Assembly (NCBI GenBank): GCA_963677485.1
Contig: OY781964.1
Span: forward strand, 1,888,001-1,952,000
Source: Armatimonadota bacterium
GTDB lineage: Bacteria > Armatimonadota > HRBIN16
Length of the DNA stretch: 64,000 nucleotides
Reading direction: 5' to 3'
Every line of letters starts with the position of its first letter. Within the stretch, counting starts at the first letter, position 1. The position numbers were made by a program, and so were the translations under genes. The notes under the pieces were generated by a model. The model made no database searches, was not told the origin of the DNA, and was given only the letters and a program-made list of their open reading frames with translations. Shown one piece after another: positions 15,736 through 24,954 of the stretch.

Positions 15736-16154
15736 TCATAATCTCCAAAACGCGACAACCAATCTGCCGTATATGTAGTTAGCCAACGAACCGCCGTCAA
15801 AAGATGACGCCCAGATCAGACCACGTTGATAGTATCATAACCCGCGGGTTTGCACAGGTCTATGTTTTTCGGTCATTGTGAGCATCATAGCTTCGGTACC
15901 GGTGGCATGTAGGTACACCCAGGGCGATTCGCCAATCGCCCCAAGTACGCTGAAGCGGACGGGGGAATACTCCCTGCGCCGGCCGGAGCGTAGCGACGCC
16001 GGCCGCTAATGATCAGCCACGCGGTGAGGAAACCCCGTAGGGACGCCAGTCCCGTGGGGTGACTGAACCCGTGGCCATTTGCCAATATCGTCAGTTACAC
16101 CCTGGGCTGCCGTGCCATCACGGGCGGTTGCTTGTTCCTGACACACATCATCCA

Positions 16155-16830
16155 TGGCTATCCGCCAGACCGGCGCGGTCTTGGGACTTCCGCCACCGCT
16201 AGCGTACCGCCAGACCGCCCCGGACAGTGGCAATTGGGTACCCATCCACGTCATCCTTGGTTCAGACAATCCGCGTTCATCTGTGTCCATTCGTGTCTAT
16301 CGGTGTAAATTCGTGGTTGAAAATGAATCCATAACTATTTCGTGCCAATCGCCCCCTGCTACGAAAAAAGACCGGCGCGGTCTTGAGCCTTCTGCATCCG
16401 CTAACCTACAGCCAGACCGCCCCGGACATAGCCAATTGGGCTGTGGTGTGCTCACGACAATCCGCGTTTATCTGTGTCCATTCGTGTCTATCGGCGTTTA
16501 TTCGTGGTTAAGAAATGAATCCAAACAATTTCGTGCCAATCGCCCCCTGCTACGAAAAAAGACCGGCGCGGTCTTGAGCCTTCTGCATCCGCTAGCGTAC
16601 CGCCAGACCGCCCCGGACAGTGGCATTTGGGCACCCATCCATGTCATCCGTGGTTCAGACAATCGGCGTTCATCTGTGTCCATTCGTGTTTATCGGTGTT
16701 AATTCGTGGTTAAGAATTGAATCCAAAACAATTTCGTGCCAATCGCTCCCTGCTTAGGAAAAAGACCGGCGCGGTCTCGAGCCTTCTGCAGCCATGAGCC
16801 TGCGCGCAGACCTCCCCGGACAGTGGCAAT
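16155..16830. repeat. Tandem array of ~200-bp units (four GACCGGCGCGGTCT...CCCCGGAC cores)
   Basis: Cores start at about 16168, 16370, 16561 and 16764. They alternate with 'ATCTGTGTCCATTCGTG...TTTCGTGCCAATCGC' linkers. Confidence 0.9.
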
Positions 16831-17076
16831 GCGTGGCTGCAACGTAAGCGAACAGTTGGTGGTGCCGATTCTATGTCTTCTATTGACCAAATGCAGGCTA
16901 GCAGTTATCATATTTGAGGCATATAGGCATTTGGGAACAAAATACATGGTAATTTCCGTCTATATTTCACAGGACGTAAACATTGGTCGTCAGGTTAAGG
17001 TATAACTAACATATCATCACCCCCCGCCCAAAGGGGCCTGTCAACGCACACTCCGTGCGGGAAAGGGGCAAACACA

Positions 17077-17562
17077 ATGAGCACGACACACCTAAGAGGC
17101 TTTCTTCTCACTGAAGAGGGCCATGAAACACTAAAAAAAGAGCTGGAGCATCTGGTCAGCGTCGGTCGAAAAGAGATTGCCGACCGCATCCGTACCGCCA
17201 AAGAGTTCGGGGAGATCACAGATAATCCCGAGTATGATGATGCCAAAAACCAGCAAGCCTACATAGAGGGCCGGATCGAGGAGCTTCATAGCTTCCTGGA
17301 CAATGCGTATACTATAAACAGTGACAGCATCACCACCGATACTGTGGGATTCGGCTCGGTCGTTACAGTTTACGACGCCGACAACGACGATGAGTGGACT
17401 TTTCGACTGGTCAGCGCGCCTGAGGCTGGCGATGACGATGATCTGCTATCGATTGACTCTCCTCTAGGCAAGGCACTGGTAGGGCACGCCCCAGGCGAAT
17501 CGCTGGAGGTAAAAGCCCCCGCAGGTACGGTGAGAATTAAGATATTGGGTATTTCAAAATAG
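17077..17562 (+). CDS. greA: Transcription elongation factor GreA
   Basis: Motifs 'LTEEG...LKKELEHL', 'AKEFGEITDNPEYDDAK' and 'SIDSPLGKALVG'. Confidence 0.95.
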   Translation: MSTTHLRGFLLTEEGHETLKKELEHLVSVGRKEIADRIRTAKEFGEITDNPEYDDAKNQQAYIEGRIEELHSFLDNAYTINSDSITTDTVGFGSVVTVYDADNDDEWTFRLVSAPEAGDDDDLLSIDSPLGKALVGHAPGESLEVKAPAGTVRIKILGISK

Positions 17563-19068
17563 ATGGAACAGACAACCGTACAGGACCTGAACGATCAGAT
17601 GATGCGCCGCCGCGAAAAGCTGGCGGCGCTAGTCGACATGGGGCTCAACCCATACGCAATAGAGGCCTTCGAGCGCACACACACCTGCCAGAAGGTTCAT
17701 GATGAATTTGAGGCACTGACCGAGCAGCAAGTCGCGGTGTGCGGTCGTGTCGTGGCATTACGCCATATGGGCAAAGCGGCCTTCCTGCATGTGGAGGACT
17801 GGAGCGGAAAAATCCAGGCCTACCTGCGTAAGGACGACATCGGCGAAGACAAATGGCCGGTCGTGAAGCTGCTGGACCTCGGTGACTATATCGGTGTGAC
17901 CGGTAAGCCGTTCATCACCAAAACCGGTGAGCAGTCCATCCACGCCGAAAGTGTGTTGGTGCTCAGCAAATGCCTGCGCCCTATTCCTTACGGCAAAGAG
18001 AAGGAAGGGCAGAACTGGAACACGCTCCAGGACGTGGAGATACGCTATCGCCAGCGCTATCTTGACCTGCTGACCAACGATGAGGGCCGCAACCGGCTGG
18101 TACAGCGCTGCCACATCATATCGGAGGTTCGCCGCTGGCTGGATGACCGCGGCTTCCTGGAGGTCGAAACCCCCATGCTGCAGGAAGTGGCAGGCGGGGC
18201 CGCCGCCCGGCCTTTCATGACGCACCACAACGCGCTGGATTTCGACTTCAAGCTGCGCATCAGCATCGAGCTCTACCTGAAGCGACTGATCGTGGGCAAC
18301 ATCGAAAAGGTGTATGAAATCGGCAAGGTGTTCCGCAACGAGGGCATGGACCGCCGTCATAACCCGGAGTTCACTCTGCTGGAGCTGTATCAAGCCTACG
18401 TGAACCTGGAAGAGATGATGGAGATCACCGAACAACTTTTCTACACATGCTGTATGAAGCTGCACGGTGTGCCGTACATCGAAGTGGCCGGCGAGAAGGT
18501 AGACTTCACCCCGCCGTGGCCCCGCCGCAGCATGATGTCGCTGATTGAGGAGTATGCCGGGGTCAAGCCGGAAGAGCTTGCGACATTTGATACCGCTTGT
18601 GCCGCGATGAAGCGATGCGGCCTGCCTACCGCTGACGAGAACCAGGTGGGCGGAATCATGGAGAAGCTGCTGGAGCGGTTTGTTCAGCCCAGAATGATTC
18701 AGCCGATCTTCATCACCGATCATCCGCTGGAGACGTCCCCTCTGGCTAAGAAGAAGCAGGATGATCCTACGCTCACACGCCGTTTTGAGGCCTATATGCT
18801 GGGCCAAGAGGTAGCTAACGCCTTTAGCGAGTTGAACGACCCTGACGACCAACGTGAGCGGTTTATGGAGCAATTGCGCATGAGGGCTGCCGGTGATGAT
18901 GAGGCCCATCCGCTTGATGAAGACTTCCTGCAGTGCCTGGAATACGGCATGCCGCCTACGGGTGGTTTGGGGATTGGCATGGACCGCATGGCCATCATCC
19001 TGACAGCCGCCGATAGCATCCAGGATGTGATGTTCTTCCCTGCCATGAAGCCGAAGTCACAAGGCTAG
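17563..19068 (+). CDS. lysS: Lysine--tRNA ligase (class II)
   Basis: Motifs 'RYRQRYLDL', 'EVETPML', 'GGAAARPF', 'FRNEG...HNPEFT', 'NAFSELNDP' and 'YGMPPTGGLGIGMDR'. Confidence 0.97.
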   Translation: MEQTTVQDLNDQMMRRREKLAALVDMGLNPYAIEAFERTHTCQKVHDEFEALTEQQVAVCGRVVALRHMGKAAFLHVEDWSGKIQAYLRKDDIGEDKWPVVKLLDLGDYIGVTGKPFITKTGEQSIHAESVLVLSKCLRPIPYGKEKEGQNWNTLQDVEIRYRQRYLDLLTNDEGRNRLVQRCHIISEVRRWLDDRGFLEVETPMLQEVAGGAAARPFMTHHNALDFDFKLRISIELYLKRLIVGNIEKVYEIGKVFRNEGMDRRHNPEFTLLELYQAYVNLEEMMEITEQLFYTCCMKLHGVPYIEVAGEKVDFTPPWPRRSMMSLIEEYAGVKPEELATFDTACAAMKRCGLPTADENQVGGIMEKLLERFVQPRMIQPIFITDHPLETSPLAKKKQDDPTLTRRFEAYMLGQEVANAFSELNDPDDQRERFMEQLRMRAAGDDEAHPLDEDFLQCLEYGMPPTGGLGIGMDRMAIILTAADSIQDVMFFPAMKPKSQG

Positions 19069-19090
19069 AATCCCGCAGGGTAGCCGCCTT

Positions 19091-19129
19091 AAGTCCGTCG
19101 ACCAGTTATTAGCTGGCCGGCGGACTTTT
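19091..19129 (+). terminator. Terminator-like hairpin after lysS
   Basis: AAGTCCGTCGaCCAGTT-att-AGCTGGcCGGCGGACTT stem followed by TT, located between convergent genes. Confidence 0.6.
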
Positions 19130-19225
19130 ACATTTATAGGACCGGTAGGATGAGTAAGACGAGTAGGACAGTGGAATACCCAGCGGTTCTCTCCTGCTCT
19201 CCTACCCTCCGATACTCCTCTTCTC

Positions 19226-20317
19226 CTACCCTCCTACCTTCTCCAGCAAAACCAGCCCTGGCTCACCACCCTCCACACTACCGCTCAGAATATAGCTCAC
19301 AGCCGGGCAGCCGGCATCACACGCCACCTGCTCGCTGCAGCCATTACAGCCCTCCGGCTTGAACTCACGCAGCACATGCTGCATCCACAACGGGTGCTGG
19401 GGGAAATCCTGGCACTGCGTGTAGTGACCCAGCCGCACCGGCGAGTGGTTGCACACCCGCACGTAACCCGAGGGGTCGACCGCCACGAAGTTGTGAACCG
19501 CGGAACACTGACTGGCCACATACAGATGCTTCAACTCCAAACCGCGAATCGCACAAGCGGGCAGCTCCGTACCCATCGAGCCATACCGACCGGCATCAAC
19601 CAGAGCCGATTCGGCGGTGAGCAGCGCCTCGCGCAGCTCGTCATTACTTAACGACAGCATCTCCCGATAGCCCAACCCCCTGCCGCCTGGCATGAAGCGG
19701 TTGAGCAGCAACTGGTCGGCCCCGGCCAGCAGACCCTCGGCGATGTTCTGGTAGAGTTCTTGCAGGTTGAGTTTGGTCACGGTGACCGCCACCGTGACCA
19801 GCAAGCCAGCGGCTTTGGCCACTCGGATGGCGTTCAACGCGCTCTGCACATCGCCACCGCCGGTGAGCTGTTCAAAGCTGCGCCATCCCGGCAGCGAGAC
19901 GGTCAACTGCAAGCCGCACTCCGCCGCGACAGCCGCGAACGCCTCATCAACCAGCCGACCATTGGTGTTCATGTGCAGTGTCGGAGGGGCTTGAGTGGCC
20001 ACAAGCTCGCCATCCACCGTCCGGAAGTGCGTGCCGGTGGCAGTGGCCGAGTGGCGCAGTATCTCCAGGATGTCCGGCCGCAACAGCGGTTCGCCGCCCG
20101 TGAAGGAGAGATGGCTGACACCCATTTCCAACAGATTGTCGATCATCTGCTTGACCTGCTGGGTGTCCTGCTCAGGCAGTCGCTCGAAGCTGCCATCGGG
20201 GGCATCCCAAGGGCAGGAGCAGAACAGGCAGCTATGGTTGCATCGGTAGGTGAGTTCCAGTGCAACGGTAGGAGGAAGCGGCGAGGGCATCAGCACCCCG
20301 CTACTTTTTTGGTTCAT
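19226..20317 (-). CDS. Radical SAM enzyme with SPASM domain
   Basis: 'ELTYRCNHSCLFC' (CxxxCxxC), 'FTGGEPLLR', 'NTNG' and SPASM cysteines 'CSA...VDPSGYVRVC...CNGCSEQVACDAGCP'. Confidence 0.93.
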   Translation of the reverse strand: MNQKSSGVLMPSPLPPTVALELTYRCNHSCLFCSCPWDAPDGSFERLPEQDTQQVKQMIDNLLEMGVSHLSFTGGEPLLRPDILEILRHSATATGTHFRTVDGELVATQAPPTLHMNTNGRLVDEAFAAVAAECGLQLTVSLPGWRSFEQLTGGGDVQSALNAIRVAKAAGLLVTVAVTVTKLNLQELYQNIAEGLLAGADQLLLNRFMPGGRGLGYREMLSLSNDELREALLTAESALVDAGRYGSMGTELPACAIRGLELKHLYVASQCSAVHNFVAVDPSGYVRVCNHSPVRLGHYTQCQDFPQHPLWMQHVLREFKPEGCNGCSEQVACDAGCPAVSYILSGSVEGGEPGLVLLEKVGG

Positions 20318-20861
20318 GATCCATACCTAACAGTTGCCGCAGTTTCGGGGCTACTTCCGACAGCGGGGTAAGGCCCGCATATCGCTTGCCCTGGAACAGG
20401 CAGAGCAACTGGTAGATCGCTTCCGGTTGCTCCAGGTCCGCCCGATGGGCATTCCCCTTGCGGTCGGTGGTGACCAGCACGGCATAGTAGCCTGTCTTGC
20501 CCTTGGAGCAGCGTGAGCAGAGCGTTGTTTCGTCCAGCGAGATACGTATCTGCGCGCGGACCGCTGCCAGCCGGGCGTTGAGCGGTTTGACTTCACGACG
20601 GGCCGCTGAGAGTTCCAGAATGTAGTCTTTATGAAAATCGGTGAAGACTGTTCGTGCGCCGCATTTCGGGCAGAGGTAGTCCACACGATCGGGCGGCATG
20701 GCCACATCGTAGCACATGGCGGACTGCACCACCTCGTAGCGTTCGGCCTTCTCAAGCTGGTCAAGGCGCGCTTTGATCTGCTGTGCGGTTTGCAGCGGGA
20801 CGCGGTCTACTTTTTTCGCCGCGTCACTGTCGCTGATACGCTTTACTGGCTCATTTCTCAT
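20301..20861 (-). CDS. SAMCY-motif zinc-ribbon protein, paralog B (candidate rSAM substrate or partner)
   Basis: 186 aa with VVQSAMCY, CPKC and CSRC. Its stop overlaps the rSAM start by 17 nt. RBS GAAAGGG. Confidence 0.8.
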   Translation of the reverse strand: MRNEPVKRISDSDAAKKVDRVPLQTAQQIKARLDQLEKAERYEVVQSAMCYDVAMPPDRVDYLCPKCGARTVFTDFHKDYILELSAARREVKPLNARLAAVRAQIRISLDETTLCSRCSKGKTGYYAVLVTTDRKGNAHRADLEQPEAIYQLLCLFQGKRYAGLTPLSEVAPKLRQLLGMDHEPKK

Positions 20862-20982
20862 AGCTTACCCTTTCGAGATTTTTTACCATCCGATGAGATT
20901 TTCGATTCTTTTTACTTCGTCACGCAACTGCACGTAACCATATTTCTGCCTGCGACACCATTTTACATATAGCAGACTTTCA

Positions 20983-21531
20983 TCAATGCTCCAAACCCAT
21001 CAATTTAGTTAGTCGTTCCGAAATATCGCCCAGGCTGACTAGCTTTGAATACCTCTTACCCTTAAGCAGACATTGGATGGCTTGCAAATCGGTGGGATAC
21101 TCGATATCAGCTCGATGCACGTTCTTACGCTTATCCGTCGTCACCAAAGATGCACGGTTGCCGGGCTTTTCTTTGGCGCAGCGAGCGCACAACGGAGATT
21201 CATCAAGCGTGAAGTGTAGTTCAGACTTCAACTTATCAGACAGCCTGTTCAGCTCCGGAATTGTGCTTCGAGCCGACTCGATACCACGAATGTAACTCAC
21301 CATACTCTCCGTAAACACCGTGCGCGCACCGCACTTGGGACAGAGGTAGTCCACACGAGTGGCTGGAGCGGCAGGTTTGTAGCACATGGCGGACTGCACG
21401 ACCACATATTGCTCACCGCGTTTAAGTTGGGCCAGCCGTTGTTTGATTTCACTGCGAGTGCGCATCGGAACACGATCGACGATCTTCTCAGCCTGGATTT
21501 CGGGAATCTGTTTCACTGGCTCAGTTCTCAT
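20983..21531 (-). CDS. SAMCY-motif zinc-ribbon protein, paralog A
   Basis: 182 aa. Aligns without gaps to 20301..20861 with about half of the residues identical, and has an identical leader. Confidence 0.8.
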   Translation of the reverse strand: MRTEPVKQIPEIQAEKIVDRVPMRTRSEIKQRLAQLKRGEQYVVVQSAMCYKPAAPATRVDYLCPKCGARTVFTESMVSYIRGIESARSTIPELNRLSDKLKSELHFTLDESPLCARCAKEKPGNRASLVTTDKRKNVHRADIEYPTDLQAIQCLLKGKRYSKLVSLGDISERLTKLMGLEH

Positions 21532-21726
21532 AGCTTACCCTTTCGAGAGTGTATGCTTTTATGACGGTATCCTGCGCTGTTGGTTACATTTCGGGTGATC
21601 TTGTTCAGGGCAGGCACGGGGGCCTGCCCCTACGGTTGTGACCATACCCATATGACATGTCAGACGAGGTGGACGAGTAGGACTGGTGTGTTTCTTCCGT
21701 CTCCGGCTCTCCTATTCTCCCATCTC

Positions 21727-22800
21727 CTAACTCCTCCAAAAGAACGCGTAACGCTCCATCGCGTCCATCAGCGCGTTGGCGTTCTCCAGCGGTACGCCGT
21801 GATACAGGCCGTAGACCATCATCAGCCCGCCTTGAGGGCTGCCCAACTCGGACACTTCTTCGCGGATCATCTCGTCAATCTGCGCTGGCGTGCCAAACCG
21901 CGTGGTCTTCTGACGGTCGATATCCAGCTCGATGCAGACCTTCCCCTTGACGTTCTGCTTGATCCAGTCGATGCCGTTGACCAGGTCCTGCAGGTTCATG
22001 ACATCCACTCCGCCATCTACGATGTCGGCATACAGGCTGCGGATATCGCCATCGGAGTGCATGTGGACCAGGCAACCGGCCTCTTTGGCCGGCTTCATCA
22101 ATCGCTGGTAACTCGGCTTGATATACTTTCGGAAGTGCGCAGGCGAGAGCATCGGGCCGTTTTGCATGCCCAGGTCTTCCGCGTAGCCCATCGTGTCGGG
22201 AGCCAAACGAACGTAACGCTTTACCAGACCAAGGTTGAACTGCTCTACCATCTCGATCAGCACGTCCAGCCTCGGATCCTCATCGGCCATATCATACATG
22301 AGGTTCTGGTAACCCCTGATATCCACCAACTGCAGGAAGGTGTGTCCATGCCGCAGGCCAGCCGCACACAGCGAGCCGTTGGCTTTCGTTTGCTCAAAGG
22401 ACTTTGCGGTCTGCTCCCAGTCGATAGGCCCTATCCCCATGCATGTTTCGGGATCGGGCGCGATGTAACCTTGCAGGCTGTCCCAGTTCTCCAGCGGGTG
22501 TTTCGTGACCACGCCCACGATACCCGCCTCAGAGGTTTCCCAGAAGCATCCCCAGTCGTCCGTGTAGGTGATGTTCCCGCTTTGCTTGGGAGACGGCGTA
22601 AATCCTTCTGGCGGCAACCAGACCGAGGGGTCGGGATACAGTAACGGGTGAGACAGGATCAACTCCTTCAAGGCGTCTACGGGGTAGTTGTTCCAGCAAG
22701 CCCCATTGATGTGGAAGGCCATCGGAATGAAGTCTGGCTTCTCAAAACGCACCGCGCGCAGATAGTTCTGTCGCCTTTCCGATTCTGATATCTTTGTCAT
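21727..22800 (-). CDS. Uroporphyrinogen decarboxylase family protein (URO-D/MtaA-like)
   Basis: Motifs 'DDWGC.W', 'IRGYQNLMYD', 'EDLGMQNGPMLSP..FRKYIKP', 'HMHSDG' and 'GVPLEN'. Confidence 0.85.
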   Translation of the reverse strand: MTKISESERRQNYLRAVRFEKPDFIPMAFHINGACWNNYPVDALKELILSHPLLYPDPSVWLPPEGFTPSPKQSGNITYTDDWGCFWETSEAGIVGVVTKHPLENWDSLQGYIAPDPETCMGIGPIDWEQTAKSFEQTKANGSLCAAGLRHGHTFLQLVDIRGYQNLMYDMADEDPRLDVLIEMVEQFNLGLVKRYVRLAPDTMGYAEDLGMQNGPMLSPAHFRKYIKPSYQRLMKPAKEAGCLVHMHSDGDIRSLYADIVDGGVDVMNLQDLVNGIDWIKQNVKGKVCIELDIDRQKTTRFGTPAQIDEMIREEVSELGSPQGGLMMVYGLYHGVPLENANALMDAMERYAFFWRS

Positions 22801-22899: not shown

Positions 22900-24954
22900 C
22901 TATTTGACAAACCGCACGCTGAGCTGCCGAGAGGCCGGCACGCGAACCACCACAACCCCCTTCAGTTCATCGGATACCACGAGCTTGAGTACCTTGCCGG
23001 TGCGAGCGTCCACCACTCGCGAGAAATCGGCAGGCTGGGCGAACTCTACCTGCTTCACGCCGATCGGGCCGGTGAACACCACATCGATGCGGCGTGAGCC
23101 GTTCGCCTCGGGGCTGATGCTGACACTCAGGCGGCTGCCCTCCGAATTCGGCAGCTTGATCTTGGATATCTCAAGCTTATCCGCCTTCACCGCCTCCGGA
23201 ATGAGCGGAAAGACACGCAGACGGTTGGCGATCTGGTCGTAATCTACACCGAATAGTTTCTCCACCACGCACTGGATCCACTGCGAGGCCGACCAGCCGT
23301 AACGCTGCACGCCCTCACCGCTCCCGGTGGTGGGGTGCAGGAACTCCGTCCAGCGCCGGTTGAACTGCTTGATGGTCATCCAGTTCAGTTCCGCTGAAAG
23401 GTCGTAACGCCCCACGTCTCTCAGACCGTCGATCACGGGCAGGTTGCGCATCGTCCAGATATCGCCCCACCAGGCACGGCCATCGTAAGGTCCGGTCGCC
23501 TCCACATAGCGAGGTTCAGTCTTGGCCAGGCTGGTGATAGCCACTCCGCCCCAGTTGAACAGCTTGGGATCAAGTAGCTGCGGAATCAGCTTACCGACCT
23601 GCGCTTCTGAGGCCGTATTCAAACGCATCGGGTCAAAGGTTGTGCAGATGAGTTGCGGGTCGTGCTCACGTGTCTGCACGTTCACATTGAAGTAGTCACC
23701 GCGTGTGTTATCCCAGCTATATTTGTTTAGTGCCGATTGAAGTTCACGCTTTTGCTTCTCGTAGTAGTCTGCTTGCTCGGTATGTCCTAAGGCGCGTGCC
23801 AGTTTGGACACGTTGTCGCATCCGATAATGACCGCCATATTGGTATCCACCGGCGCCACCGTTTGGGAGGTGGGGATATCTGCACCGAGACTCTCCTCGA
23901 AGATGGCGGTGATGAGCTTCGTCTTGGCATCGCGCTTCACGGGGGAGAGCCACCAGTCCAGATAGCCCTTCAGACAAGCGTAGACGTCTTCGCGGGTTTT
24001 GATGTCGCCGCTGCGCCGCGCCACATCGTAAGCGGCCTCGAACAGCCGAGGGGTGCTGCTCTGCTCGCCCATGGTGCCCCTGACCGAGGCTGAGCCCCAC
24101 AGGTCGATGCGGCCATCGGGGTTCAACGCCTGCACGGCGGCGAATCCCCGGCACATCTGCTCAGCCAGTTGCGGGTTGGCCCACTTCGTGCCGATGATGT
24201 TCAATCCGCTGTCCAGTTGCCACCAGTTCTCGCCGTAAGCTCCGCCAGGCCCCATCACAGGCGTGGGGAAGCCCTGCACCGGCACGCTGGTGATCAAACA
24301 CTCATCCAGCACCTTGAAGGCGTCTGCAAAGTCGGCTTGAGTCACGCCTGCTATCTGCACTACCGGCACCACCGCCGGGCTGCACACATCCGGGCGGGGA
24401 AGTTTGGGCCGTGGGTCGCCCTTGGCAAACCGGATGCTGCGGATCCACATATCGCCAGCCCGCGCCAGACAAATCGGCCTAATGCGGATCTGGTCAATGG
24501 GCTTGCCCCAAGCTCCGTCCACATGAACCACCACCTCTTGCCACTCCTTGCAGTAGGACTTCATGGTGAAGCGGATCACGCCGGCATCTTGCGTGGGGTT
24601 GTCTGGATGGCGCCAGAACAGGAAGCCGTCGGTCTCTGGCGACTGGTTGAGCATGGTGATGATCACCTTGTTATAGCTCTCGTATGGGATATTCAAACCG
24701 TGCGGCGAGTCGATCTCACCCATCGGCGGAGCGTAGGTCTGGTTGGGGATCGCCGCATAGTCGTAATTCGCAGGCAGATTCGCCCTCAGGCGCATCGATC
24801 CGCCCATGATGCTGGCACTCAGGTTCGGTGCGATCGTCCAGCCCAGTGAGTCTCCGCTGCGGCTAAACTGCCACATCGGTGCATCGGCCTGTGCGGCCAT
24901 CGAAATCATGCATGGAGCGGCTATCAGTGCCAAGATAAGTATTATCGTCTTCAT
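22900..24954 (-). CDS. Secreted (alpha/alpha)6 glycoside hydrolase (GH63/MGH1/trehalase-like)
   Basis: 684 aa with a signal peptide. Motifs 'NWWQLDS', 'APVDTN', 'WWGDIW' and 'EFLHPTTG...YGWSA'. Confidence 0.7.
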   Translation of the reverse strand: MKTIILILALIAAPCMISMAAQADAPMWQFSRSGDSLGWTIAPNLSASIMGGSMRLRANLPANYDYAAIPNQTYAPPMGEIDSPHGLNIPYESYNKVIITMLNQSPETDGFLFWRHPDNPTQDAGVIRFTMKSYCKEWQEVVVHVDGAWGKPIDQIRIRPICLARAGDMWIRSIRFAKGDPRPKLPRPDVCSPAVVPVVQIAGVTQADFADAFKVLDECLITSVPVQGFPTPVMGPGGAYGENWWQLDSGLNIIGTKWANPQLAEQMCRGFAAVQALNPDGRIDLWGSASVRGTMGEQSSTPRLFEAAYDVARRSGDIKTREDVYACLKGYLDWWLSPVKRDAKTKLITAIFEESLGADIPTSQTVAPVDTNMAVIIGCDNVSKLARALGHTEQADYYEKQKRELQSALNKYSWDNTRGDYFNVNVQTREHDPQLICTTFDPMRLNTASEAQVGKLIPQLLDPKLFNWGGVAITSLAKTEPRYVEATGPYDGRAWWGDIWTMRNLPVIDGLRDVGRYDLSAELNWMTIKQFNRRWTEFLHPTTGSGEGVQRYGWSASQWIQCVVEKLFGVDYDQIANRLRVFPLIPEAVKADKLEISKIKLPNSEGSRLSVSISPEANGSRRIDVVFTGPIGVKQVEFAQPADFSRVVDARTGKVLKLVVSDELKGVVVVRVPASRQLSVRFVK

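Follow-up and report, generated by a model that had tools for sequence, protein, structure and literature searches.

A SPASM radical S-adenosylmethionine enzyme and its paralogous zinc-ribbon partners in an Armatimonadota genome: a probable undescribed protein-modification system

The window analyzed here, a stretch of 64,000 nucleotides (nt) from an Armatimonadota bacterium of the HRBIN16 lineage (assembly GCA_963677485.1, contig OY781964.1, positions 1,888,001 to 1,952,000), carries a minus-strand cassette of three genes encoding two paralogous zinc-ribbon proteins with a common Met-Cys-Tyr (MCY) motif and a radical S-adenosylmethionine (rSAM) enzyme with a SPASM-type C-terminal domain (Table 1). 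The pairing of the MCY proteins with this enzyme probably marks an undescribed protein-modification system. In the explanation that we favor, with reasonable though far from full confidence, the enzyme is a dedicated SPASM maturase that acts on folded zinc-ribbon proteins and docks on the ribbon itself, with neither a leader peptide nor the recognition element (RRE) of peptides that are made on ribosomes and modified after translation (RiPPs). The three genes would thus form a self-contained protein-maturation cassette, with the enzyme dedicated to the MCY proteins encoded just upstream of it. The system is compact, having two components that are linked near-obligately in both directions, an invariant candidate site, and a predicted mode of recognition that is free of a leader and an RRE.

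An earlier note, made from the sequence alone, had described a three-gene operon in which two gap-free paralogs, with about 90 of 182 residues identical by hand count, keep an invariant octapeptide, a following CxxC motif, and a distal LCxRC motif, and in which the second paralog overlaps the start of a complete rSAM/SPASM gene. This layout was borne out in every part. The three open reading frames (ORFs) are present, and BLASTP aligns copies A and B with 90/182 identities (49%), 126/182 positives, and 0 gaps (E value of 9e-66), a similarity that, judged from the two sequences, is not due to chance. Both copies hold the octapeptide ending in Met-Cys-Tyr at residues 44 to 51, a common 16-residue stretch with the first CxxC motif (C64 and C67; the first knuckle reads C64-P-K-C67-G), and the distal motif at C115 and C118 (C115-x-R-C118). 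The 24 nt comprising the leader and first codons are identical before copies A and B, and the duplication therefore took in the translation-initiation region. These two copies are the only MCY genes in the genome of the bacterium (5.22 Mb, one contig).

The MCY proteins belong to a large family of proteins of 180 to 220 amino acids (aa). A word-indexed search with the small protein gave 7 close relatives among 43 candidates, and a profile search of 1.84 billion representative sequences (50% identity) gave at least 622 matches at an E value of ≤1e-3, with 286 at ≤1e-10 and 13 at ≤1e-30. The set that was examined, 156 proteins, comprises the best 150 of the profile search and the close relatives from the word-indexed search; by hmmsearch, 133 of them hold one MCY domain, 20 hold two, and 3 hold three. 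A scan of copies A and B against Pfam and NCBIfam returned no family, with generic zinc-ribbon models scoring below threshold only. None of 44 family members scanned against Pfam has a family covering the MCY domain; in a few multidomain proteins among them, generic ribbon models add up to a borderline score over the whole protein, but no individual stretch passes. The ESM Atlas returned unnamed "hypothetical protein" clusters only (best score, 0.90), and a PADLOC scan of four MCY proteins for anti-phage defense returned 0 families. In two members without the hydrophobic anchor described below (P0054 and P0125), a DksA/TraR C4 zinc finger is fused at the C terminus (43 bits versus 24.9). These fusions suggest that the family may be connected with RNA polymerase or with regulation, and the window cassette happens to adjoin greA.

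The motif, on whose conservation the earlier proposal depended, is nearly invariant across the family. In an hmmalign alignment of 173 domains, A48, M49, C50, and Y51 are conserved in 97%, 84%, 98%, and 98%, respectively, and the preceding residue is Gly or Ser. The region of the first knuckle is also constrained (Y62, 96%; C64, 100%; P65, 94%; C67, 93%; G68, 90%; T71, 96%), as is that of the second (L109-D110-E111, 90 to 98%; C115 and C118, 99% each), and conservation extends into the C-terminal half (D148, 95%; G158, 89%; C-terminal Leu-Leu-Gly, 84 to 91%). The Pro-rich stretch after Met-Cys-Tyr, which had been called variable, proved to be conserved family-wide (Ala54, 71%; Pro56, 74%; Pro57, 79%; Arg59, 64%), and that part of the earlier description does not stand. 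Cys154 of the window copies is not conserved in the family, where Glu takes this position in 50%.

AlphaFold2 predicts copy A as a single domain (predicted local distance difference test score [pLDDT], 91.7; predicted TM score, 0.86; 38-row alignment), with strands at residues 42 to 45, 60 to 63, 70 to 73, 106 to 110, 128 to 132, and 138 to 142 and a long helix at residues 75 to 100. The two CxxC knuckles, 93 to 100% conserved and flanked by strands in the model, would form a C4 ribbon site that may bind zinc or iron. The loop that bears the motif (residues 46 to 59) is modeled as coil with somewhat lower confidence (block means of 85 to 86). A Foldseek search of the model against the PDB returned nothing at an E value of ≤0.001 (best, 0.21; TM score, ≤0.30), and an exhaustive VIA-align comparison returned one chain only at a Z score of ≥5 (5.9, under the tool's stated background of 7 to 8). 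On the basis of this model, no known fold can be named, which is not proof of a new fold.

The enzyme encoded downstream is a member of the radical SAM superfamily (PF04055, 75 bits; cutoff, 29.5), and its C-terminal 124 residues (240 to 363) pass the NCBIfam SPASM model TIGR04085 (32.9 bits versus 27). One ortholog (L062) scores 36.4 bits with the latter model, and the Pfam SPASM model PF13186 gave no match to the window enzyme at an E value of ≤0.1. Among 43 members of the clade, C26, C30, and C33 are conserved in 100%, and they are part of a set of cysteines conserved in 93 to 100% that also includes C35, C255, C271, C289, C324, C327, C333, and C337. The canonical SPASM motif consists of Cx9-15Gx4C, then CX2CX5CX3C, and then a distal final Cys. 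The spacing in the enzyme is of this type (C271-x12-G284-x4-C289 and C324-x2-C327-x5-C333-x3-C337, with C255 upstream), but the clade departs from the canonical set in having no conserved Cys after C337. In a hidden Markov model (HMM) alignment to PqqE (6c8v), the last Cys of PqqE faces a non-Cys residue that lies 2 to 3 residues past the nearly invariant D352. One auxiliary cluster would therefore have three Cys ligands or another ligand, such as D352.

No curated family accommodates the enzyme among the models compared. None of the best 25 of its 74 NCBIfam matches reaches the curated cutoff, the best being MftC (TIGR03962, 80.7 bits versus 265), and the same is true of four orthologs from other phyla. 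The PqqE model (TIGR02109) scores 59.3 bits against a cutoff of 381.35, with the four orthologs at 68 to 101 bits (up to 100.9), and the similarity to SPASM models for cofactor synthesis is weak and far under the cutoffs (AhbD, 64.6 bits; MoaA, 60.4 bits; NirJ, 58.2 bits). The CrpC family model TIGR04463 is not among the best 25 of the 74 matches, the 25th of which scores 31.8 bits. By sequence, the nearest solved relatives are SkfB (E value of 6.5e-20), PqqE (7.8e-16), CteB (5wgg; 2.5e-11), MoaA, and anSME (2.1e-6), the similarity to anSME being limited to the N-terminal core. The orthologs score 270 to 355 bits mutually, with the curated families far below, and they are therefore regarded as a separate clade. 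PADLOC matched only the generic N-terminal part of pVip models (residues 18 to 101, 46 bits), which does not place the enzyme in a defense system. The rSAM core begins at about residue 17 to 21, leaving no room for an RRE. The enzyme also differs from the RRE-leader type of RiPP maturase in having no N-terminal extension, no conserved third gene, and partners that are folded proteins rather than short peptides.

The two gene families were found to be linked from both sides. On the small-protein side, one genome per species was scanned with patterns derived from the MCY protein, which gave 57 loci, and 45 of these, with at least 10 phylum-level labels, carry an ortholog of the window enzyme (phmmer E values of 1e-35 to 1e-107). 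The enzyme gene lies directly downstream on the same strand in the great majority of the 45; it lies upstream in L016, L020, and L048 and between two MCY genes in L052. Half of the 12 loci without the enzyme gene stop at a contig edge just past the MCY genes (L009, L018, L026, L037, L046, and L063), and the other half have at least 3 kb of downstream sequence without it (L019, L023, L031, L040, L057, and L061). Among the latter, L019, L023, and L057 are second loci of metagenome-assembled genomes whose other locus (L050, L060, and L053) holds the enzyme gene, and L031, L040, and L057 have <500 bp of upstream sequence. At one enzyme-bearing locus (L038), the MCY gene was reported by tblastn and missed by the ORF and HMM step. 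In the reciprocal scan, metagenomes were searched with two patterns derived from the enzyme only; at least 589 stretches matched, and at least 563 of them encode relatives. At 78 of the best 80 loci, one or more MCY ORFs adjoin the enzyme gene on the same strand, and at the other 2 the sequence upstream extends for only 87 and 150 bp. The genes are closely packed, with gaps of 6 to 60 nt or overlaps in most of the 80. The proposal of the earlier note, which stood or fell with such linkage, thus survives on both sides.

The 57 MCY loci come from uncultured and gut-associated lineages labeled as Planctomycetota, Verrucomicrobiota, Lentisphaerae/Victivallales, Bacteroidota, Omnitrophota, Fibrobacteres, Melainabacteria, Myxococcota, Desulfobacterales, Gammaproteobacteria, and others. 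The label Victivallis vadensis is represented, and one locus labeled Akkermansia muciniphila (L056) carries both genes. In a set of 61 genomes related to that of the window, both families are present in the same 2, the window's own (G000) and a congener (G001), and neither occurs in a third congener or in the 58 others; with this distribution, the cassette is patchy and probably mobile. A class-level sample of 151 genomes around another carrier (G061), searched for the enzyme, shows that ortholog-level matches are rare there, with G061 itself (604 bits) as the only one. Matches of 146 to 160 bits in five other genomes of this sample were treated as other SPASM families.

Copy number is asymmetric, with 1 to 7 MCY genes, or 2 to 3 fused MCY domains, per single enzyme gene. 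Five whole genomes hold exactly one enzyme gene each; in G063, one of these five, two other contigs bear MCY loci as well. Among 288 neighboring ORFs within 4 kb, no third gene is conserved beside the pair, and none that encodes a protease, a transporter, or an RRE protein is conserved, in agreement with the earlier note, which saw none of the three present. The largest cluster of neighbors across loci, a HisKA-domain protein, occurs at 8 loci only; it is a histidine kinase of about 404 aa (L044, 6216 to 7427, and 7 other loci), mostly encoded upstream on the same strand. Three loci (L051, L053, and L060; e.g., L053, 10123 to 11331) carry a second, unrelated rSAM/SPASM gene of about 403 aa 0.5 to 1.5 kb downstream (PF04055, 73 bits; PF13186, 38.5 bits), which is accompanied by a family of 118-aa ORFs.

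Modeling of the complex, which the earlier note had suggested, also supports direct binding of the MCY protein by the enzyme. The two chains, each with its own alignment (36 rows for the enzyme and 38 for the MCY protein), received the verdict "supports binding," with an ipSAE of 0.87 (0.87, 0.88, and 0.87 in the individual runs) versus 0.00 for the best of three controls; of 80 solved complexes, 58 reached this mark, as did 2 of 110 mismatched pairs, a calibration that is only roughly valid given the chains' own alignments. At least 54% of the contacts are common to the runs, and the pLDDT of the partner is at least 72. The contacts with the lowest predicted error join residues 8 to 15 of the enzyme, a segment that includes the conserved A10, S12, L14, and P15, to residues 68 to 73 and 116 to 117 of the MCY protein, and residues 275 and 315 of the enzyme touch MCY residues 61 to 63. 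The confident interface comprises residues 23 to 40, 49, 52 to 54, 58 to 59, and 113 to 125 on the MCY side and residues 98 to 105, 189 to 204, 238 to 249, 266 to 276, 306 to 318, 325, and 331 to 332 on the enzyme side.

In most other organisms the MCY domain is predicted to be tethered to the membrane. A strongly hydrophobic 17-mer begins at about residue 3 in 122 of the 156 MCY proteins; 117 of these 122 have no Lys or Arg before it, the next 15 residues hold a mean of 2.4 Lys or Arg, and in 110 the hydrophobic run is followed by Arg or Lys as the first charged residue. Membrane orientation is commonly predicted with the positive-inside rule. Under this rule, the charge pattern predicts an anchor with its N terminus outside and its C terminus inside, so that the MCY domain would be cytoplasmic and reachable by the enzyme. 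A uniform topology is spoken against by a Cys within six residues before the first Arg or Lys in 50 of the 122 anchored proteins and by a strict lipobox in 14. Despite the Cys in these 50, almost no anchored homolog begins with the positively charged n-region that a lipoprotein signal should show. Four proteins without the strong hydrophobic 17-mer (P0093, P0130, P0142, and P0150) have a classical signal-peptide-like start with an N-terminal Lys-Lys. A hydrophobic segment is lacking in window copies A and B, which are hence predicted to be soluble, and in their close relatives. Since most other organisms carry the domain behind an N-terminal hydrophobic anchor, the modified product probably acts at the membrane.

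In the mechanism that we propose, the enzyme most likely modifies the MCY proteins post-translationally in the exposed loop (residues 46 to 59), which bears Gly/Ser-Ala-Met-Cys-Tyr. Recognition would be achieved by the N-terminal segment of the enzyme (residues 5 to 16) pairing with the beta-hairpin of the first metal knuckle (residues 68 to 76), an arrangement that would replace the leader and RRE of other systems, and the SPASM domain would pack on MCY residues 61 to 63 and 113 to 125 and thereby bring the MCY loop to the enzyme. A 5'-deoxyadenosyl radical would then abstract a hydrogen atom, which would be followed by formation of a thioether cross-link centered on Cys50. If the MCY proteins are substrates, this thioether is a tentative assignment, favored because the nearest characterized relatives are thioether-forming or cross-linking SPASM/twitch enzymes. 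A C-C or C-O cross-link centered on Tyr51 is an unlikelier outcome, and oxidation of Cys50 of the formylglycine type is less probable still. The earlier interpretation as a whole is therefore partly supported, the substrate role of the small protein, Cys50 as the site, and the chemistry being what we infer beyond the linkage and conservation.

Several results weigh against this explanation. Adjacency and predicted binding fit an obligate partner that is not a substrate equally well. In the complex model, the best-defined contacts are those of the ribbon hairpin (residues 68 to 76) and not of the MCY loop; Cys50 and Tyr51 are not among the confident interface residues, which in the terms of the tool means uncertain rather than absent; and positions of the predicted interface show no significant excess of conservation over the rest of the domain (mean information, 2.07 versus 1.87 bits; one-sided Mann-Whitney P value of 0.15). 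The short Cys-to-acceptor spacing that is usual for ranthionine and sactionine motifs is not evident after Cys50. For CrpC of Methanococcus voltae, the absence of an upstream SPASM Cys was argued to let a substrate Cys bind AuxI (PMC13692751); this argument transfers loosely, because here the last SPASM Cys is absent and not an upstream one. In the congener (G001; L007, 4525 to 5636), the enzyme gene is split into ORFs of 137 and 248 aa by a 1-nt deletion at gene position 366, with 959 of 1,091 aligned bases identical to the window gene and three tandem MCY genes intact beside it. The split may represent early decay into a pseudogene or an assembly error, or it may mean that the small proteins are valuable without the enzyme.

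The main rival reading, which we consider unlikely, is that the MCY proteins are obligate accessory subunits of the enzyme, acting as rubredoxin-like electron donors or as adaptors that present another substrate. The C-P-x-C-G and C-x-x-C knuckles resemble those of rubredoxins and zinc ribbons, with the Pfam ribbon models remaining below threshold; the MCY domain is a compact, confidently folded unit; the predicted interface consists mostly of the ribbon hairpin; and the intact MCY genes beside the frameshifted enzyme gene of the congener indicate that they can persist alone. However, up to 7 tandem copies, fusions of two to three domains, and unlinked loci would be unusual if the protein were a stoichiometric subunit, the neighborhoods offer no other conserved gene as the source of a substrate, the N-terminal anchor of most homologs is unexpected for a soluble redox partner, and the strictly conserved Cys-Tyr pair sits outside the metal site. 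A substrate role is therefore favored over a subunit role, given that the arrays are multicopy and fused, that there is one enzyme per genome, that extra partner loci occur unlinked, and that no other gene is conserved.

The membrane anchor can also be read differently, namely, that the enzyme acts on a lipid, a cofactor, or a small molecule and that the MCY proteins are membrane-tethered carriers, regulators, or product receptors. The weak HMM likeness to AhbD, MoaA, and NirJ would fit, but no biosynthetic genes are conserved around the pair, the better matches of the enzyme are peptide-modifying enzymes, and the complex model puts the MCY loop and the ribbon on the SPASM domain and the barrel opening, which makes this reading improbable. 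We give somewhat less credence again to a conventional RiPP with an unusually long precursor, in which a peptide around Met-Cys-Tyr would be modified, excised, and released. The precursor-like multicopy arrays beside a SPASM maturase are in keeping with such a pathway, and a conserved helix N-terminal to the motif (residues 26 to 38) could serve as a leader; however, the 288 neighboring ORFs hold no conserved protease or transporter, the motif is invariant where RiPP cores usually vary, and the entire 155-residue domain is conserved as one folding unit, as far as its C-terminal helix (residues 171 to 180, 2.73 bits). That the genes are functionally unrelated and adjacent by chance is highly improbable in view of the linkage in 45/57 and 78/80 loci across many phyla, the same phyletic pattern, and the overlapping frames. 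A dedicated maturase acting on the folded MCY proteins thus remains the explanation that we favor.

Table 1. Positions of the cassette genes and of associated features within the 64,000-nt window
Feature	Position	Strand	Remark
MCY zinc-ribbon copy A	20983..21531	-	ORF, 182 aa; first gene of the cassette
MCY zinc-ribbon copy B	20301..20861	-	ORF, 186 aa
Radical SAM/SPASM enzyme	19226..20317	-	ORF, 363 aa; without an N-terminal RRE
Met49-Cys50-Tyr51 codons of copy A	21379..21387	-	Near-invariant motif, candidate modification site
First CxxC knuckle of copy A (C64-P-K-C67)	21331..21342	-	Family conservation
Second CxxC knuckle of copy A (C115-A-R-C118)	21178..21189	-	Family conservation
Met-Cys-Tyr of copy B	20709-20717	-	
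CxxC knuckles of copy B	20661-20672 and 20508-20519	-	
Overlap of the copy B end with the rSAM start	20301..20317	-	17 nt; read as translational coupling
CX3CX2C rSAM cluster motif (C26, C30, C33; plus invariant C35-P-W)	20219..20242	-	
SPASM-type auxiliary-cluster region	19307..19555	-	Seven conserved Cys (C255, C271, C289, C324, C327, C333, C337)
Leader and start codon region before copy A	21525..21548	-	24 nt; identical at 20855-20878 before copy B
GC-rich palindromic repeat	21606..21641	.	About 30 nt; separates copy A from the URO-D-like gene

Downstream of the cassette lie convergent greA-lysS genes (17077 to 19068), as they also do in the congener, a sister species. The strand of the cassette carries, farther upstream, a URO-D-family gene (21727 to 22800, 46.8 bits) and a GH63/MGH1-like glycosidase gene (22900 to 24954, 684 aa), which are excluded from the cassette because the congener has other genes at that position. 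The GC-rich palindromic repeat between the URO-D-family gene and copy A has at least 22 matches in the genome of the bacterium and resembles a repetitive extragenic palindromic (REP)-like dispersed repeat; contigs of one sequencing run (X7) are very deep there, with many loose ends. The repeat may be a transcript boundary. A scan of positions 18900 to 22000 found 0 promoter-like sites and 1 terminator-like site, which is not above shuffled sequence. Contigs from two runs labeled as metatranscriptomes (X17 and X18) match pieces of the cassette within 19253 to 20915 at 90 to 99% identity, and one of them crosses the junction of copy B and the enzyme gene (20231 to 20534); they were not counted as expression, as such libraries can hold DNA and a contig is no proof of a transcript. 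In the noncoding gap before greA (16167 to 16835), tandem direct repeats of about 177 to 200 nt lie at 16265, 16456, and 16659 (61 to 88% identical), with an extra 158-nt pair 393 nt apart, and the ORF at 16154 to 16702 is a mere read-through of these repeats.

The earlier note had recognized no described family, and this agrees with the present searches: no curated model (Pfam, NCBIfam 20.0, or PADLOC) and no paper found describes the MCY/rSAM system. Other rSAM-associated Cys-rich proteins are listed in the supplement of PMC13692751, and the family might be among them. Source names of the relatives are "radical SAM protein" or none. If the proposed modification takes place, it could bring new post-translational chemistry and two new protein families, and the window copies, being predicted to be soluble and free of an anchor, would be handy test substrates. 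A more far-reaching possibility, to which we attach little probability, is that a leader-independent SPASM enzyme converts the invariant Cys and Tyr of a folded, usually membrane-tethered ribbon of new fold into a new cross-link or protein-derived cofactor, and that the ribbon would sense redox state or metals on the cytoplasmic side of the membrane in anaerobes of many phyla. This possibility would fit the histidine kinase neighbors at 8 loci and the DksA/TraR zinc-finger fusions.

Several known SPASM enzymes share features with the enzyme described here. anSME, a SPASM enzyme of about 370 aa, lacks an RRE and targets a single Cys that lies within a short motif of its full-length protein substrate; in sulfatases this motif is C/S-x-P/A-x-R. 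The window enzyme resembles it in size, in having no RRE, and weakly in the rSAM core. However, the sulfatase motif is absent from the MCY loop, in which Pro-Pro stands at +6/+7 and Arg at +9 from Cys50, and the partner here, an MCY protein and no sulfatase, is strictly co-encoded, so the enzyme is not classed as an anSME. QhpD, another SPASM rSAM enzyme, cross-links Cys residues in QhpC, a small protein subunit, in the maturation of quinohemoprotein amine dehydrogenase; in contrast, an Akkermansia-labeled ortholog of the window enzyme scores 36.3 bits with the QhpD model TIGR03906 (cutoff, 453), and no dehydrogenase subunits are encoded in the neighborhoods. The substrates of MftC, PqqE, SkfB, and CteB are short peptides, and these enzymes make use of an RRE or of a separate chaperone; CteB raises the same point about a missing cluster ligand as CrpC. 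Their rSAM cores and SPASM/twitch C-terminal domains align with those of the window enzyme, which scores far under the cutoffs of the MftC and PqqE models.

The closest parallel in kind is CrpC, a SPASM rSAM enzyme that installs thioethers in CrpA, a protein of 28.8 kDa (PMC13692751). Both enzymes are encoded beside paralogous, protein-sized partners and have seven SPASM Cys, and no protease or transporter was identified with either (PMC13692751). The product of CrpC is a protein and not a peptide, as would hold here if the MCY proteins are substrates (PMC13692751). However, CrpC has an RRE and belongs to TIGR04463, whereas the window enzyme has no RRE and, among the best 25 of its NCBIfam matches, reaches the cutoff of no equivalog model, and CrpA has a 47-residue leader-like N terminus and ten Cys-rich 17-residue repeats, whereas the MCY proteins have one invariant Cys-Tyr pair next to a folded C4 ribbon (PMC13692751). 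Validated examples of rSAM/SPASM enzymes that act on large protein substrates are described there as limited (PMC13692751). A SPASM maturase with a co-encoded substrate is a known kind of system, and what is apparently new here is the enzyme clade, the putative substrate family and its fold, and a recognition that would not depend on a leader.

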